DNA from: Blastocatellia bacterium
Lineage (GTDB): Bacteria > Acidobacteriota > Blastocatellia > UBA7656
Reading direction: 5' to 3'
Assembly (NCBI GenBank): GCA_045807725.1
Contig: JBJMGV010000132.1
Coordinates: forward strand, 7,151 to 71,150
DNA length: 64,000 bases
Of this stretch, positions 477 through 27,752 are shown piece by piece (within the stretch, counting starts at the first letter, position 1; each line of letters starts with the position of its first letter). The position numbers were made by a program, and so were the translations under genes. The notes below the pieces were generated by a model. That model saw only the letters and a list, made by a program, of their open reading frames with translations. It searched no databases and was not told the DNA's origin.

Positions 477-2786
477 ATGGCCGAAACGATTTCGCATTAC
501 CGCATCGAAAGGAAGCTCGGCGCGGGCGGCATGGGCGAGGTCTACTTGGCCGAAGACCTGCGGCTGGGCCGGCGGGTCGCGCTCAAATTCCTGCCCGCTT
601 CTTATCAGTATGACGCCGACCGCCGCGCCCGCTTTCTCAAAGAAGCGCGCGCCGCTTCCGCCTTGCGCTCGCCGTACATCGCCGCCATCTATGACATCGG
701 CGAACAGGACGGCACGATGTTTCTGGTGCTGGAATACGTCGAAGGCGAATTGCTGTCGGCGCGCGTCGAGCGCGGCGCAATGGCTCCGCGTGAAGCCGTC
801 GAGGTCGGCGAGCAGATTGCCGACGCGCTTGATGAAGCGCACAGCCTCGGCATCATCCACCGCGATGTCAAGAGCGCCAACCTGATCTGGACGCCGCGCG
901 GGCTGGTGAAGATGCTCGACTTTGGATTGGCGAAACTCAGCCAGATTCCTACGGCTCAATCTGACAGCAGCGACTACACGACGCCGCTCGGCCAGCAGAC
1001 CGCCGCCGGCATCGTGCTCGGCACGGTCACGTATATGTCGCCCGAACAGGCGCTGGGCCGTCCGCTCGATGGGCGCACAGACCTCTTCAGCTTAGGCGTC
1101 GTGCTCTACGAGACGCTTACGGCGCGGCTGCCCTTCACGGGAACAAGCGCCACAGAGATCATCGACCACATCCTGCACAGCGAACCCGTTGCGGTGTCGC
1201 GCTTCAATGCCAACACGCCGGCGGAGCTTGAGCGCATCGTCCGCAAGTGCATGGAGAAAGACCGCGACCGTCGTTACCAGTCGGCCCGCGAGCTGGCCAT
1301 TGACCTGCGCAACCTGAAGCGCGATCTTGATTCGGGCGCGCTCTCGACATCGGGCCTGTTGACGCAGAGCTTCACGAATGCTTCAGTGCGCCGCACGCGA
1401 ACGCGCCGCGCTATTGATTCGCTGGCCATCCTGCCGCTTGCCAACGAGAGCCTTGATGCGGAAGCCGATTATCTCGCCGACGGCATCACCGAATCGATCA
1501 TCAATAACCTGTCGCAGCTACCGAAGCTGCGCGTGATGGCGCGTTCGACCGTCTTTCGTTATAAAGGCCGCGCCGTTGATCCCATCAGCACGGGCATTGA
1601 GCTTGGCGTGCGCGCCGTGCTGGTCGGGCGTATGCTCCATCGCGGCGACCAGTTGATTATCAAAGTCGAGCTGGTGGACACGGGCGACGGCTCGCACGTC
1701 TGGGGTGAAACTTACAATCGACCGATGGCCGACATCTTCGCCATCGAGTCCGACATTTCGAGCGTCATCTCTGAGAAGCTGCGCCTGAAGCTCAGCAGCG
1801 CGCAGAAGCAGAAGCTGACGAAGCGCCACACCGGCAATACGGAAGCCTATCAGCTTTATCTCAAGGGCCGCTTTTATTGGAACAAGCGCACGCCCGACAG
1901 CCTGCGGCGCGGCATCGATTATTTCACCCAGGCCATAGCGGCTGATCCGAGCTACGCGATGGCTTACGCCGGCCTGGCCGACTCCTACAACATCCTGGCG
2001 AGCTACAGCGCGTCGGCCCCCGACGAAGCGTTTCCGAAAGCGCAGGCAGCGGCGGTCAGGGCGTTGCAATTGGACGAGCGATTGCCCGAAGCGCACGCCT
2101 CGATGGCGTTTGTGACGTTCGGCTATTCGTGGGACTTTGCGCAGGCCGACCGCGAGTTCAAGCGCGCGCTCGAACTCAGCCCCGGCTACGCGGTGGCGCA
2201 TCAATGGTACGCGTTATACCTTGCGGCGATGCGGCGTATGGATGAAGCCATCATCGAAATCCGCCGCGCCGAACAACTCGACCCGCTGTCGCTGCCGATT
2301 CTAACGAACAAGGGTTGGATACTCTATCTGGCGCGCCGCTACGACGAAGCGCGAGATACATTACAGAAGGCGCTTGAGCTTGACCGCGACTTCGTGCTGG
2401 CGCACCGGCGGTTGGGTCAGGTCTACGAAGCGCGCGAGATGTTCGCCGAGGCGCGGCGCGAGTACGAGAAGTGTTTAGAGCTTGCGCCCGATGATGTCGA
2501 AACGCTGGCCGCGCTCGGCCACGCTTATGCCGCAGGCGGCGAGCCGGACCGCGCCCGCGAAATCATCGCTCGATTGATCGAATCGGCCAGGAGCCGCTAC
2601 GTGCCGTCTTACCTGATCGCCGTCATTGAGATCGGCTTGAATGACGCGGACGCGGCTTTCACGTGGCTCGAACGCGCCTTTGCGGAACGCTATGGCTTTC
2701 TCGCTTACCTGAACGTCAGCCCGGTCTTTGACCCTCTGCGGCAGGACGAACGCCTGCGCGACCTGGCCACGCGCGTCGGGATTTGA
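477..2786 (+). CDS. Serine/threonine protein kinase (Hanks type) with C-terminal TPR repeat region
   Basis: N-terminal kinase motifs GAGGMGEVY, VALK, HRDVKSANL and DFGLAK; C-terminal ~400 aa rich in TPR-like helical repeats. ATG at 477 is in frame and directly precedes the kinase domain; the ORF track starts at TTG 423. Confidence 0.9.
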   Translation: MAETISHYRIERKLGAGGMGEVYLAEDLRLGRRVALKFLPASYQYDADRRARFLKEARAASALRSPYIAAIYDIGEQDGTMFLVLEYVEGELLSARVERGAMAPREAVEVGEQIADALDEAHSLGIIHRDVKSANLIWTPRGLVKMLDFGLAKLSQIPTAQSDSSDYTTPLGQQTAAGIVLGTVTYMSPEQALGRPLDGRTDLFSLGVVLYETLTARLPFTGTSATEIIDHILHSEPVAVSRFNANTPAELERIVRKCMEKDRDRRYQSARELAIDLRNLKRDLDSGALSTSGLLTQSFTNASVRRTRTRRAIDSLAILPLANESLDAEADYLADGITESIINNLSQLPKLRVMARSTVFRYKGRAVDPISTGIELGVRAVLVGRMLHRGDQLIIKVELVDTGDGSHVWGETYNRPMADIFAIESDISSVISEKLRLKLSSAQKQKLTKRHTGNTEAYQLYLKGRFYWNKRTPDSLRRGIDYFTQAIAADPSYAMAYAGLADSYNILASYSASAPDEAFPKAQAAAVRALQLDERLPEAHASMAFVTFGYSWDFAQADREFKRALELSPGYAVAHQWYALYLAAMRRMDEAIIEIRRAEQLDPLSLPILTNKGWILYLARRYDEARDTLQKALELDRDFVLAHRRLGQVYEAREMFAEARREYEKCLELAPDDVETLAALGHAYAAGGEPDRAREIIARLIESARSRYVPSYLIAVIEIGLNDADAAFTWLERAFAERYGFLAYLNVSPVFDPLRQDERLRDLATRVGI

Positions 2787-2787
2787 A

Positions 2788-3192
2788 CAGGATTCAGGAT
2801 TCAGGATTCAGGATACAGGAAGCAGGAAGCAGGAGGCAGTGGTCAGTGATCAGTGGTCAGTGGTCAGTTGATAGTTCCCCAAGCTCCGTCAGGAGCGCGA
2901 TGTTTATAGTTACCGATGCAATAGATGAAGCAAGCTCCGTCAGGAGCGCAATGTTTATAGTCAACGAGACGATTAGATTCTCAAGCTCCGTCAGGAGCGC
3001 GATGTTTATAGAAATGGCTGAAGGATGTGACGAAGCCCCGTAGGGGCGCAATGTTGACATCACGCTCCTGACGGAGCTTGGATCATCAACAACATTGTTG
3101 ACTATAAACATCGCGCTCCTGACGGAGCTTGGTCGAACGAACGACTATCAACTGGCCACTGGCCATTGACCACTGACCACTGGCCACTGCCT
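2788..3192. repeat. Complex palindromic MITE-like repeat element, copy 1. Tandem heptamer arms (caggatt; cagtggt) flank a core of three direct 29-bp repeats (2881-2909, 2932-2960, 2983-3011) plus inverted copies (around 3047-3080 and 3102-3130)
   Basis: Read directly. AAGCTCCGTCAGGAGCGCGATGTTTATAG occurs three times directly and twice reverse-complemented. The outer arms (2837-2872 vs 3150-3192) are imperfect inverted repeats made of GTCAGTG-type heptamers. The central block ggctgaaggatgtgacgaagccccgtaggggcgcaatgttgacat is shared with the 11.8 kb copy. Confidence 0.8.
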
Positions 3193-3243
3193 TAGGGTAG
3201 CAACTCGACGGTGGCGCGTTGGGCTGCCCGCGTAAGGCATCGG

Positions 3244-3933
3244 TCACGCGAACAGCGACTGCTCGTAGCGGTAGCAGTGAATCTCCATTGCGCCGAGCGC
3301 GAAGCGGACGGGCTTCAAAACGTAGCGACCCGCCGGCAACGCGGTATAAGCGGCCTCGGTCAGCAGTATCTCATCCGTTTCGGCAATGTCTTCGCCGAGC
3401 TTGCACGCCACATTCATCTCAGAGCCGAACATGTCTTCGTCGCCGATGACCAGCGTGTCGCCGAAGCCTATGCCGATGCTGCCGTGCAAGTGGCGTTCGG
3501 ACGGCAGCACATTGTTGATGGCGGTGAAGGCGCGCAGGATGTCGAGCGCCGCTTCGAGCGCCTGCGCCGGCTCACTGAAAATAGCAAAGATGTCGTCGGC
3601 CTCCTGCTTGATGACGCGCCCGCCGTTGCCGTTGATGGCGGGCCGCGCCACCTCTTCCATCTGGCGGATCATCGCGAGGAAGTGGATGATGCCGTGCGCC
3701 ATCGTCAGTTGGGTGAAGCCGCACATATCCATCGCCAGAATCGCTACTCGTTGTCCGAAGGTTTGCGTGATCTGCCGATCAATGTCGGCGGCGCGGGCGG
3801 CGTGCTGGTTGCGCTCCGAGAGCAGTTGATTCAGGTAATCGCGCCCGCTTGCGAATGACGTGGCGTGTGCCGGCAACGTGCGCGTCTCCGGCTCGTCGTG
3901 TAACTGGTCGGATGATGGCGGCTGCTCGCTCAT
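3244..3933 (-). CDS. Class III adenylate/guanylate cyclase, catalytic domain only
   Basis: Cyclase-homology-domain-like motifs: VAILAMDMCGFTQL, RVIKQEADDIFAIF, IGIGFGDTLVIGD; 229 aa with no sensor domain. The antisense ORFs 3211..3858 and 3386..3829 are rejected as artefacts. Confidence 0.75.
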   Translation of the reverse strand: MSEQPPSSDQLHDEPETRTLPAHATSFASGRDYLNQLLSERNQHAARAADIDRQITQTFGQRVAILAMDMCGFTQLTMAHGIIHFLAMIRQMEEVARPAINGNGGRVIKQEADDIFAIFSEPAQALEAALDILRAFTAINNVLPSERHLHGSIGIGFGDTLVIGDEDMFGSEMNVACKLGEDIAETDEILLTEAAYTALPAGRYVLKPVRFALGAMEIHCYRYEQSLFA

Positions 3934-3972
3934 ACGTGATTCTGCGAATTGAGTGTGTGGCGTTGGCTCTGG

Positions 3973-4044
3973 TTTACCGCAGAGGACGCAAAGGAACGCA
4001 AAGGCTTATCCAACTCTGCGCCTTTTGCGTCCTCTGCGGTAAAT
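3973..4044. repeat. Inverted-repeat hairpin (ccgcagaggacgcaaagg...cctttgcgtcctctgcgg) between convergent gene ends; possible terminator
   Basis: Near-perfect ~25-bp stem seen directly. No strong T-run, so terminator function is uncertain. Confidence 0.45.
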
Positions 4045-4054
4045 GTTTATCTCG

Positions 4055-5053
4055 CTACTTGGCCGTGACGAACTCGCGGATGTAGCCGTTGACCAGCGCC
4101 GGCTTCTCGTGGATGACCCAGTGCGTGCCTTCGGGGATGCGCTTGATCGTGAGCTGAGGCACGTACTTGTCCAGCCCTTCGAGGTTGCCGGTCAGTAGCG
4201 CCGTGTCCTTCTCGCCCCAGATCACCAGCGTCGGCACTTTCACATCAAACGAAGGGAAGTTTGCAGCGATGCTCGTCCCTTCCTTGTCCGTTGCGGTTGG
4301 CGGGCCGACGCGCGCGGCGCGGTAGTAATTCAGCCCGCCCGTCAGCGCGCCCGGCTGCGACCACGCTTCGATGTACGCCTTCTTGTCCTCTTCAGTGAAC
4401 GTGCCGTTCTTCAACCCTTCGCTGAGCACGACCCCGACCAGCGTGGCGTAGTTGTTGGCCGAGAGCGTCGCTTCGGCCTGCGGGCTGCGGAACATCAGCA
4501 TATACTGCGACGCCTTCTGCTGCGCCGGGTTCTCTTTCAGCTCGCGCGCAAAGACGCCGGGGTGTGGCGCGTTGATGATGACGAGCTTCTCCAGGTACTC
4601 AGGATGAGCGATGGCAAACGCCCACGCAATCGCGCCGCCCCAGTCGTGCGCAACGAGAATGAACTTCTTGTGACCGAGCTTGTCGGCAAGCGCCCTCACG
4701 TCTTCGATCAGATACTTGACTTGATACTGATCCACTTCAGCAGGCTTGGATGACAAATTGTAGCCGCGCATATCGGGCGCAACCGCCGTGTAATCCTTGC
4801 CGAAGTCGAGGAGCTGATTCTTCCACTCGTACCAGAATTCCGGGAAGCCGTGCAGGAACATAACCAGCTTTTTGCCATTGCCCGCCGTCACGTAATGCAG
4901 GCGGACGCCGTTCACTTCGACGTAGTCGTGCTTAATCATCGGCTGGCCTTTCTTATCGTCGGCAGTGCGAGCGGCGGCGCACAAAGCGAGCAACATCACG
5001 ACGAAGCCGCTTACCACCAGTCGCCGCGTCCAGCTTTTTGTGTGAGCAATCAT
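4055..5053 (-). CDS. Secreted alpha/beta-hydrolase fold enzyme (epoxide hydrolase/haloalkane dehalogenase-like)
   Basis: N-terminal signal peptide; HGFPEFWYEW and nucleophile-elbow-like AHDWGG motifs typical of the abhydrolase_1 family. Confidence 0.85.
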   Translation of the reverse strand: MIAHTKSWTRRLVVSGFVVMLLALCAAARTADDKKGQPMIKHDYVEVNGVRLHYVTAGNGKKLVMFLHGFPEFWYEWKNQLLDFGKDYTAVAPDMRGYNLSSKPAEVDQYQVKYLIEDVRALADKLGHKKFILVAHDWGGAIAWAFAIAHPEYLEKLVIINAPHPGVFARELKENPAQQKASQYMLMFRSPQAEATLSANNYATLVGVVLSEGLKNGTFTEEDKKAYIEAWSQPGALTGGLNYYRAARVGPPTATDKEGTSIAANFPSFDVKVPTLVIWGEKDTALLTGNLEGLDKYVPQLTIKRIPEGTHWVIHEKPALVNGYIREFVTAK

Positions 5054-11763: not shown

Positions 11764-12092
11764 GTCAGGGGTCAGGGGCCGGGGGCCGGTTGTCCGTTGT
11801 CGGTTGTCAGTTGCCGGTTGTCAGTTGCCGGTTGTTGGTTAGTCCCGTAGGGACGCGATGTTTATAGTTATGGCTGAAGGATGCGACGAAGCCCCGTAGG
11901 GGCGCAATGTTGACATCTCGCTCCTGACGGAGCTTGCTTCATCTATCGCATTGTTGTCTATAAACATCGCGCTCCTACGGAGCTTCGTCACATCCTTCAG
12001 CTATATCTATACACATTGCGCTCCTGACGGAGCTTTGGGAATTATCAACTTTCAACTATCGACTGACCCCTGGCCCCGACACCCGGCCCCTG
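11764..12092. repeat. Complex palindromic MITE-like repeat element, copy 2. GTCAGGG/ttgtcag heptamer tandem arms plus a core homologous to the 2.8-3.2 kb element
   Basis: Shares ggctgaaggatgcgacgaagccccgtaggggcgcaatgttgacatctcgctcctgacggagctt and tataaacatcgcgctcct(g)acggagctt blocks with copy 1. The segment between the blocks (gcttcatctatcgcattg) is the reverse complement of the copy-1 'spacer' ttaccgatgcaatagatgaagc. The element is itself a long imperfect palindrome. Confidence 0.8.
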
Positions 12093-19284: not shown

Positions 19285-19470
19285 AGTCAGAAGTCAGAAG
19301 AAAGTATTCAGAAGTCAGAAGTCAGAAGTCAGAAGTCAGAATGAAAGCGGAAAGAATCGGGAGTTAGAATAAGAGCGGAGGCGCAGCAAGCGCCGAGTTC
19401 CTTTTCCATTCTGACTTCTGACTTCTGACTTCTTCCTCCTGACTTCTGACTTCTGACTTCTTCCTCCTGA
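19285..19470. repeat. Long hairpin whose arms are tandem GTCAGAA heptamers ((gtcagaa)n ... (ttctgac)n), intergenic between AIM24-like and TatD genes
   Basis: Read directly: at least 6 forward heptamers then at least 6 reverse-complement heptamers around a ~70-bp loop. Confidence 0.8.
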
Positions 19471-19480
19471 CCTCTCCTTC

Positions 19481-20595: not shown

Positions 20596-20689
20596 AACCA
20601 CAGATGAACACGGATGAACACGGATAAAAGGACAAACGTGAATCTCTACATTCTTTCCATCTGTGTTGATCTGTGTTCATCTGTGGTTC
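20596..20689. repeat. Inverted repeat hairpin (ccacagatgaacacggatgaacacgg ... ctgtgttgatctgtgttcatctgtgg) downstream of priA; possible terminator
   Basis: Each arm itself contains a tandem 11-mer duplication (gatgaacacgg x2). Confidence 0.55.
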
Positions 20690-23172: not shown

Positions 23173-23213
23173 CAGTGGTCAGTTGTCAGTGGCCAGCGGT
23201 CAGTTTTCAGTGG
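23173..23213. repeat. Tandem cagtggtcagt-type heptamer repeats (same family as the arms of the 2.8 kb element)
   Basis: cagtggtcagttgtcagtggccagcggtcagttttcagtgg read directly. Confidence 0.5.
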
Positions 23214-23240
23214 CGACGAGTGAGAAGAGTTGATCAGTAG

Positions 23241-27683: not shown

Positions 27684-27752
27684 GACAGTCTATCGAGTCT
27701 ATCGAGTCGGGAAACGTTCTCCTGACTCGGCTGACTCGGCAGACTCGATAGA
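27684..27752. repeat. Intercistronic hairpin between sdhA and sdhB built from tandem 9-mers (gtctatcga x2 / ctgactcgg x2)
   Basis: Read directly; lies inside a probable operon. Confidence 0.6.

Follow-up and report, generated by a model that had tools for sequence, protein, structure and literature searches.

The closest described counterparts of the element treated here are the REP (repetitive extragenic palindromic) sequences of E. coli and Pseudomonas, their clusters (bacterial interspersed mosaic elements, BIMEs) and their doublets (REPINs), which together with a REP-associated tyrosine transposase (RAYT) make up the REPtron. In these systems short extragenic hairpin units are present in high copy number and form regularly spaced clusters whose members oppose one another. 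Inverted units flank a small Y1 HUH transposase gene, which has a conserved place on the chromosome, and gene-less doublets build larger hairpins. We find the same traits in a repeat family of the Acidobacteriota, represented by two copies in a stretch of 64,000 nucleotides from a Blastocatellia bacterium (assembly GCA_045807725.1, contig JBJMGV010000132.1, positions 7,151 to 71,150), hereafter called the window. At a probability of roughly 0.8, we classify the core of the first copy, at positions 2881–3130, as a BIME-like cluster of REP-type units, that is, a known kind of element in a new variant of the REP/BIME-REPIN system. A preceding reading of the locus from its letters alone (the sequence-only reading) had judged that the family appears undescribed. 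We likewise found no published description of it and nothing relevant in the literature on its tail sequence, although the kind to which it belongs (REP/BIME, REPIN-like) is known.

The family departs from the REPtron in several respects. Its transposase is of class 1 (subclass 1.2, Y---Q--HH), whereas that of the REPtron is of class 2 (Y---NP). Its unit combines a 5-bp stem with the 3' tail AT(G/A)TTTATAG, while a canonical REP has a 5' GT[AG]G foot and a stem of 7–20 bp. Units are arranged blockwise (→ → ← ←) with 51-nt phasing, in contrast to the strict alternation of REPs, and the unit is common to many species and to low-GC contigs, whereas REPs are normally species-specific.

Two other groups of elements invite comparison. 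The IS200/IS605 insertion sequences (ISs) and the palindrome-associated transposable elements (PATEs) also combine a Y1 HUH transposase with subterminal hairpins, which the enzyme probably recognises in single-stranded form; their non-autonomous copies retain only the ends. Known ISs of this type have distinct left and right ends on one strand, whereas the ends here are inverted copies of each other; each end, moreover, comprises at least two phased hairpin units, and the gene appears to be syntenic and not scattered. BOX elements of Streptococcus pneumoniae (boxA-boxB(n)-boxC) resemble the family as modular intergenic repeats with variable modules of ~45–51 nt, the outer parts of which pair into a long stem-loop. 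They have no sequence relation to it, their modules are not opposed hairpin-plus-tail units, and we know of no transposase partner of their own.

Hairpin-plus-tail units in opposed clusters

Copy 1 fills the gap between two convergent genes, as the sequence-only reading had stated. The one on its left, for a Ser/Thr kinase-TPR protein, ends at 2786, and the cyclase-like gene opposite ends at 3244. The three direct 29-bp repeats with 22-nt gaps described in that reading lie on the + strand at 2881–2909 (unit A1, hairpin GCTCC-GTCA-GGAGC plus tail GCGATGTTTATAG), 2932–2960 (A2, one mismatch, tail GCAATGTTTATAG) and 2983–3011 (A3), with a period of 51. Its two reverse-complement copies correspond to a full unit at 3102–3130 (A', − strand, which matches A1 and A3 exactly once reverse-complemented) and to a partial one at 3057–3081 (inner unit b', ACATCACGCTCCTGACGGAGCTTGG, − strand). 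Five matches to the 29-mer were observed against 0.00 expected (100 shuffles). A sixth unit, which had gone unnamed, is the variant forward sequence AGCCCCGTAGGGGCGCAATGTT at 3035–3056 (inner unit b, + strand, hairpin GCCCC-GTA-GGGGC plus the short tail GCAATGT(T)), and this unit makes up the left side of a b|b junction. The hairpin-plus-tail scan thus reads the core as six units in the order + + + + − −, phased at 51 nt.

The spacers and the central block do recur near 11.8 kb, as previously noted. Copy 2 (11764–12092) separates two MacB/FtsX permease genes that run in the same direction, and it fills all the space between the stop codon of one and the ATG of the other. Its five units, in the order + + − − −, are contained within 11841–12035: A (11841–11867, +), b (11890–11911, +), b' (11913–11935, −), A' (11958–11985, −) and A'' (12007–12035, −). 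The two copies have the spacer ATGGCTGAAGGATGYGACGA in common, as well as the central b|b block, and the scan found no further real unit outside them in the 64 kb.

Across the family, the unit consists of a 5-bp G+C hairpin (NNNCC; loop GTA, GTCA or GTTA; GGNNN) followed by the 3' tail NNN-AT(G/A)T-TTATAG, for example GCTCC-GTCA-GGAGC, GCCCC-GTA-GGGGC or GTCCC-GTA-GGGAC with a tail of the form GCRATGT(TTATAG). The stem measures 5 (to 7) bp, GTA(G) or GTCA occupies the loop, and the conserved flank is the 3' tail ATRTTTATAG. The canonical composite, A→ b→ | ←b ←A, is ~145 nt long, with the tails pointing inward and ~51 nt from A to b.

A scan of one genome per species with the 21-nt core GCTCCGTCAGGAGCGCRATGT revealed at least 57 stretches from at least 29 assemblies, at least 25 of which belong to Blastocatellia, Pyrinomonadaceae or other Acidobacteriota. 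A single metagenome-assembled genome (MAG) contributes at least 17 loci, and two of the matches are chance hits in coding DNA (L040, L052). The description of the repeat as structured, dispersed and akin to a MITE (miniature inverted-repeat transposable element) was right; the repeat is non-autonomous, and the family is common in soil Acidobacteria (class Blastocatellia). Real units were also present in MAGs labelled Gammaproteobacteria (L002, at 4960–5030) and Verrucomicrobiae (L015), where horizontal transfer or an error of binning or taxonomy could be the cause; at positions 6–900 of L015, a 581-kb contig, the units adjoin a transposase gene, which is 50% identical. Viral contigs gave one hit only.

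The fetched loci and the window, 480 kb in all, hold 205 units. Almost all clusters follow the pattern + + − −, direct spacing is 48–53 nt, and divergent (head-to-head) pairs are almost absent. All composites are extragenic, between long open reading frames (ORFs), and the flanking genes are tandem in 30 cases, convergent in 9 and divergent in 8. Several 8-kb loci contain two composites; the density is about one per 30 kb, and the window is alike. Spacer-less head-to-tail arrays of units with a period of ~28 nt occur at L084 (1750–1910), L017 (7120–7250) and L054 (1540–1880); in the last, partial units of 17 nt (GGATTCTGACGGAGCGA) stand in tandem.

In favour of a CRISPR array, genuine or degenerate, with repeats that would be processed into guide RNAs, it can be said that the 29-nt repeats contain a hairpin and are regularly spaced at 51 nt. 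CRISPR repeats, however, all point one way and alternate with unique spacers of about 26–72 nt. Here the spacers are 22 nt long, are found again in copy 2 and in other genomes and show partial mutual complementarity, and the units face each other. No Cas family was found among the window ORFs with Pfam and PADLOC (top 25 families per search). The repeat occupies dozens of intergenic sites per genome instead of one locus with variable spacers and cas genes nearby, and it flanks a transposase gene. The anatomy already refutes the CRISPR reading, to which we assign practically no probability; the sequence-only reading had also held that the array was not adaptive. Such look-alikes are thereby explained in a major group of soil bacteria, in which the repeats will mislead repeat finders and break assemblies; many contigs that bear the transposase are just 0.7–3 kb long.

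The extensive hairpin proposed earlier is supported by folding of both strands: for the copy 1 intergenic region the + strand gave −253.6 kcal/mol (z = −17) and the − strand −230.7 kcal/mol (z = −18), and copy 2 gave −173 kcal/mol (z = −15). A single unit as single-stranded DNA folds with −5.2 kcal/mol. For a covariation test, units were located by the tail alone and no hairpin was required of them, so the test is not circular. Exactly compensating 5' halves were carried by 45 of the 72 distinct units with a non-majority 3' stem half, against 0.49 on average and at most 4 upon random re-pairing (1000 trials). The small unit hairpin is under selection, with compensatory changes within units. 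Since stems often differ between the two arms of one composite (GCTCC versus GTCCC, for example), the conserved structure is this local hairpin and not the long foldback alone. The sequence-only reading had proposed an extensive cruciform or RNA hairpin; the long hairpin does form, but the selected structure is the local one, and the cruciform is not alone in importance.

A Y1 transposase gene at the b|b junction

In a Pyrinomonadaceae MAG (locus L026) the halves of the composite lie ~560 nt apart, in the arrangement A→ b→ [Y1_Tnp gene] ←b ←A, and the gene therefore takes up precisely the position of the b|b junction in the composite that lacks a gene. The gene (3408–3886), which was spotted by eye, is broken by an 8-bp duplication (caattggt caattgg) and is either a pseudogene or the product of a long-read assembly error. 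The repaired protein of 156 aa matches Pfam PF01797 Y1_Tnp (E = 3.4e-27) and the NCBIfam IS200/IS605 model NF033573 (75.9 bits, cut-off 55), and it scores 35.8 bits with the NCBIfam RayT model NF047646, below the cut-off of 80. Its nearest solved structures are the IS200-family transposases 2fyx, 2xm3 and 2a6m. A phmmer search with E. coli RayT against the six-frame ORFs of the window and the 57 loci gave no match; it also missed the divergent, frameshifted L026 gene and is hence uninformative.

Scanning metagenome contigs with the L026 protein recovered 80 loci with 80–56% identity. The homologues are 153–156 aa long, with intact ORFs in 74 of the 80, and the gene sits at the b|b junction in L026 and in nearly all of the 51 metagenome homologues with at least 68% identity, bracketed by units at offsets such as −84 and −33 upstream and +4 and +57 downstream. 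In a structure-blind count, the density of the tail motif was 5.68 per kb within 300 nt of the gene versus 0.66 per kb beyond. In the high-GC group the motif occurs within that distance downstream at 50/52 loci and upstream at 43/49. Homologues on contigs of 34–43% GC (L118–L144) are flanked by a short hairpin plus NNNAT(G/A)TTTATAG, and the tail AT(G/A)TTTATAG is kept even beside homologues on 35%-GC contigs. Conservation of the tail across phyla is unusual for REP-type repeats and points to a likely recognition or cleavage site. The same low-GC contigs carry distant subclass-1.2 genes beside hairpin arrays, often with a period of ~49 nt, and further composites often neighbour the transposase-gene loci.

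As judged from its motifs, the transposase belongs to TnpA-Y1 subclass 1.2. Among the 80 homologues Y---Q--HH is present in 77, WQ in 76 and DH[IVL]H in 74, and the Y motif of the L026 type is YIQNQKAHH. The published signature of the subclass is DH[IV]H, WQ and YIKNQKEHH with a median length of 148 aa, and its members are described as low-copy, not IS-like and found mainly in Cyanobacteria and Bacteroidetes, with the entry 'REP: no' in the summary table (Quentin et al. 2018, PMC6006769). The present enzymes appear to agree with that survey in their motifs (DH[IV]H, WQ, YI.NQ..HH), in a length of ~150 aa and in a low-copy, non-IS-like behaviour; they differ from it in that they occur in Acidobacteriota and are regularly flanked by REP-like units. 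This is the one survey of the matter that we found, and we found no later literature on REPs of subclass 1.2. Since databases already auto-name the homologues ('REP element-mobilizing transposase RayT', 'IS200/IS605 family transposase', 'REP-associated tyrosine transposase [Blastocatellia bacterium]'), the gene itself is not unknown; it is the repeat partner of a subclass-1.2 transposase that appears undescribed. A transposase subgroup of open role thereby gains a concrete DNA partner, and a biochemical test would be straightforward.

The neighbourhood of the gene is conserved as well and of housekeeping type, with an amidohydrolase gene downstream at 23/51 loci and a peptidase S9 gene upstream at 13/51, which points towards a resident, vertically inherited gene; together with the mostly intact ORFs, it suggests a domesticated-like behaviour. 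A MITE of a DDE transposon would have terminal inverted repeats, a target-site duplication and a parent IS with a DDE transposase. In the present family the outer A units serve as inverted ends, direct duplications were not evident at the flanks of the aligned copies, and the sole gene found between the element ends encodes the Y1 HUH enzyme. Because relatives carry this gene at the b|b junction, we read the composite as what remains of a REPtron's design when the gene is absent, and compare it with a REPIN, a BIME or a PATE. We also lean, by analogy with characterised enzymes of this kind, towards the view that the Y1 enzyme actually moves the units.

The same protein could instead suggest that the units are the ends or remnants of an ordinary, active, multi-copy IS200-type IS (PATE-like debris), with no REP system built around a resident single-copy gene. 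Such an origin would agree with the scores of the protein, which passes the IS200/IS605 model of NCBI and fails the RayT model, and with its class 1 type of Y motif (Y---Q). Against it stand the inverted ends, which are unlike those of IS200/IS605, the conserved synteny of the gene across diverged contigs, and the excess of gene-less clusters, with 72 unit clusters versus two gene-bearing loci among the 57 loci fetched by the repeat. The published survey, too, calls subclass 1.2 low-copy and not IS-like (PMC6006769). We consider this origin very unlikely.

Heptamer foldbacks and orthologous sites

The core of copy 1 sits between inverted arms of tandem heptamers, which the sequence-only reading had correctly recorded together with (caggatt)n repeats on the left. 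As delimited with Tandem Repeats Finder and an inverted-repeat search, the left arm (2829–2877) consists of (CAGTGGT)n plus CAGTTGATAGTT and the right arm (3144–3192) of ACTATCAACTG plus (ACTGGCC/ACTGACC)n. The arms are 85% complementary over 47 nt (2829–2875 against 3144–3190), with (CAGTGGT)n at 2837–2868 pairing with (ACTGGCC)n at 3151–3189. The left array at 2788–2839, (CAGGATT)x4.7 followed by (CAGGAAG/CAGGAGG)x3.4 in Tandem Repeats Finder, begins 1 nt past the kinase stop codon and is without a right-hand partner. In sequence this (CAGGATT/CAGGAAG)n array resembles the CAGGA(U/A)G repeats with which RNAs of the CsrB type sequester CsrA. The arms of copy 2 lie at 11764–11840, beside the ATG of a MacB-like gene, with G-rich heptamers (GTCAGGG/GCCGGGG) and then (CGGTTGT/CAGTTGC)n, and at 12036–12092, beside the stop codon of the upstream MacB-like gene, with (WTCAACT)n and then C-rich heptamers.

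The arms and the (CAGGATT)n array are not simply parts of one element with the core, as the earlier description would have it. In 480 kb of Blastocatellia loci we counted 165 short-period arrays of very diverse sequence, 81 of them with period 7. Sixty-eight of these arrays make up 34 inverted pairs, 25 with loops of 3–89 nt and no units and 9 with loops of 150–282 nt that hold a composite. Conversely, arms are present at 16/63 composites and lacking at 47/63. The arms are thus a separate structure, widespread and common between the genes of Blastocatellia. That the element must include arms was rejected in general on the same counts (47/63 composites without arms, 25/34 foldbacks without units), although the relation does hold in genome OY970256. 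A derivation of the arms from the REP loop motif GTCAG/GTAGG was also rejected, the two motifs occurring in 12 and 3 of the 165 array units.

Unit-free foldbacks are found in the window itself, at 19285–19475, 20599–20685 and 27687–27747 (z = −7.6 to −11.7). The arms of such unit-free intergenic hairpins (a further one, at 3970–4040, has a z score in the same range) are tandem 7-, 9- or 10-nt repeats that reach up to start or stop codons, for example (AGTCAGA)n/(TCTGACT)n, (CACGGATGAA)n and (AGTCTATCG)n. At 23173–23214 a lone (CAGTGGT/CAGTTGT)n array similar to the copy 1 arm is present; it has no inverted partner and does not fold strongly (z = −0.2). In Xanthomonas, pairs of (GGGAATC)n heptamer arrays in convergent orientation are on record, for which no mechanism was given (Rehm et al. 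2015, PMC4692102). These pairs and the cyanobacterial short tandemly repeated repetitive (STRR) sequences resemble the arms, though not the 29-mer core, in being intergenic 7-nt arrays that are often convergent, capable of forming stem-loops and quick to change in length and sequence from one relative to the next. The arms described here, unlike them, are highly diverse, with no single dominant motif, and abut stop and start codons. Heptamer foldbacks that extend up to start and stop codons are an abundant, unexplained feature and deserve a study of their own.

Orthologous sites in relatives separate the history of the units from that of the arms. At the MacB–MacB junction occupied by copy 2, units are missing from a 93% relative (L061), which carries an empty heptamer foldback with (GGGGCTA)n arms; the ATG-side arm of this foldback is homologous to the outer part of the corresponding arm in the window. 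In an 85% relative (L062) the two genes follow each other there with no intergenic DNA whatever (TGAgATG), and an 83% relative (L063/L064) has different heptamers, (TAGGCAG)n. No units were detected in 12–21 kb of syntenic DNA of L062 and L063. Because this one junction differs among L061, L062 and L063/L064, heptamer foldbacks must turn over quickly.

At the copy 1 site, 95% relatives (L149/L150) share the (CAGTGGC)n arm and carry the canonical four-unit composite, so either the window gained two 51-nt A modules or the relatives lost two. An 89% relative (L146) has no units and a foldback of the form (AGGAGGC/AGGAAGC)n, a loop of ~60 nt and (CTGCCTC/CTGCTTC)n. Its kinase-side arm is homologous to the unpaired (CAGGAAG/CAGGATT)n array of the window, which is therefore a remnant of an older foldback arm.

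It could also be that the mobile unit is the whole foldback, arms and core together, and that it spreads independently of the Y1 enzyme through hairpin-mediated template switching or another transposase, by analogy with eukaryotic Foldback elements. The four copies in OY970256 (L016 2181–2452, L019 4274–4553, L027 and L031 3676–3957) speak for this: in both orientations, homology spans the composite, two different linkers and the arms, (AGAGGTC)n and GTAAAAAG, and ends at the outer edge of the arms, and the whole foldback appears to be the copied unit there. Three composites of MAG Holy_42 share (GAGAGTCTG)n arms, and the copy 2 site has a core with inner arms of its own inside older outer arms. 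Beyond these cases, the 47/63 arm-less composites, the 25/34 unit-free foldbacks, the transposase-bearing units displayed without arms and the extreme diversity of arm sequences speak against a mobile whole foldback, which we regard as unlikely.

Several of these observations also weigh against the classification as a REP-type system that we prefer. Two canonical REP/RAYT features are missing, namely the class 2 enzyme and the 5' GT[AG]G foot, which is absent from the units, and the L026 protein scores below the RayT threshold. The transposase gene is absent from the 64-kb window. Arm carriage in OY970256 is unfavourable because a transposase cutting at REP hairpins is not expected to carry arms along. 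Finally, the sites compared include no clean pair of a filled and an empty site that would give the exact element ends or the target sequence.

The REP-type classification can be extended to a wider proposal, which we offer tentatively and at slightly less than even odds. Subclass-1.2 Y1 proteins may be the resident enzymes of a second REP-like system, defined by a hairpin plus AT(G/A)TTTATAG and distributed from Acidobacteriota to low-GC bacteria, whose units, in Blastocatellia, would prefer or travel with heptamer foldbacks as a bacterial counterpart of Foldback-type elements.

Possible mechanism, RNA effects and genomic setting

IS608 TnpA and the E. coli REP transposase TnpA-REP are single-strand-specific, recognise hairpins and use guide or cleavage sequences beside the hairpin. 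By analogy, the transposase of the present family would bind the small hairpins in single-stranded DNA, such as the lagging-strand template, and we infer that the conserved tail may serve as guide, as cleavage site or as both. Cutting and rejoining of DNA by the enzyme could then bring gene-less A b | b A copies to other intergenic sites as passengers, and the single-stranded loops of existing foldbacks would be easy targets. In the window, the cluster lies at the apex of a longer foldback with tandem-heptamer arms. Clusters would afterwards gain or lose 51-nt modules, as may have happened at copy 1, which has two more A modules than the 95% relative. Once transcribed or single-stranded, a hairpin of about −250 kcal/mol might block exonucleases or be cleaved by RNase III.

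Such effects raise the question of whether the element is mainly a host RNA element (a terminator, a stabiliser of mRNA 3' ends or an RNase III site) and its link to the transposase secondary. The extremely strong folds on both strands (z = −15 to −18) would suit that role, as would intergenic regions filled right to the stop and start codons, outer hairpins followed by TTTTC in one MAG, and a conservation of the unit across species that is unusual for selfish repeats. Rfam, however, gave no match at gathering thresholds in the window and only chance-level matches at E up to 10 in 2700–3300, and a scan of the same 2700–3300 region for promoter and terminator consensus sequences found none. Flanking genes are not clearly biased towards the orientations that a terminator would favour, the element is missing from the same sites in close relatives, and, being symmetric, it cannot be strand-specific. 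We judge a primary RNA role to be quite improbable. A dedicated role as terminator is not supported, since composites sit in tandem, convergent and divergent contexts alike, although RNA hairpins of this strength must have some effect.

Beyond the two copies, the window encodes at least five Ser/Thr protein kinases (the gene at 423–2786 that precedes copy 1 and four others), two CHAT-domain proteins and several TPR proteins. The PADLOC kinase models PD-T4-6 and mad6 match the four other kinases generically. About 50–100 nt past the stop codon of the cyclase-like gene (3193–3243 in the window, 4691–4930 in L146) share homology with the 3' end of a convergent gene, which L147 retains intact (739–1865); in the window and in L146 this stretch is a deletion remnant of the gene kept in L147.

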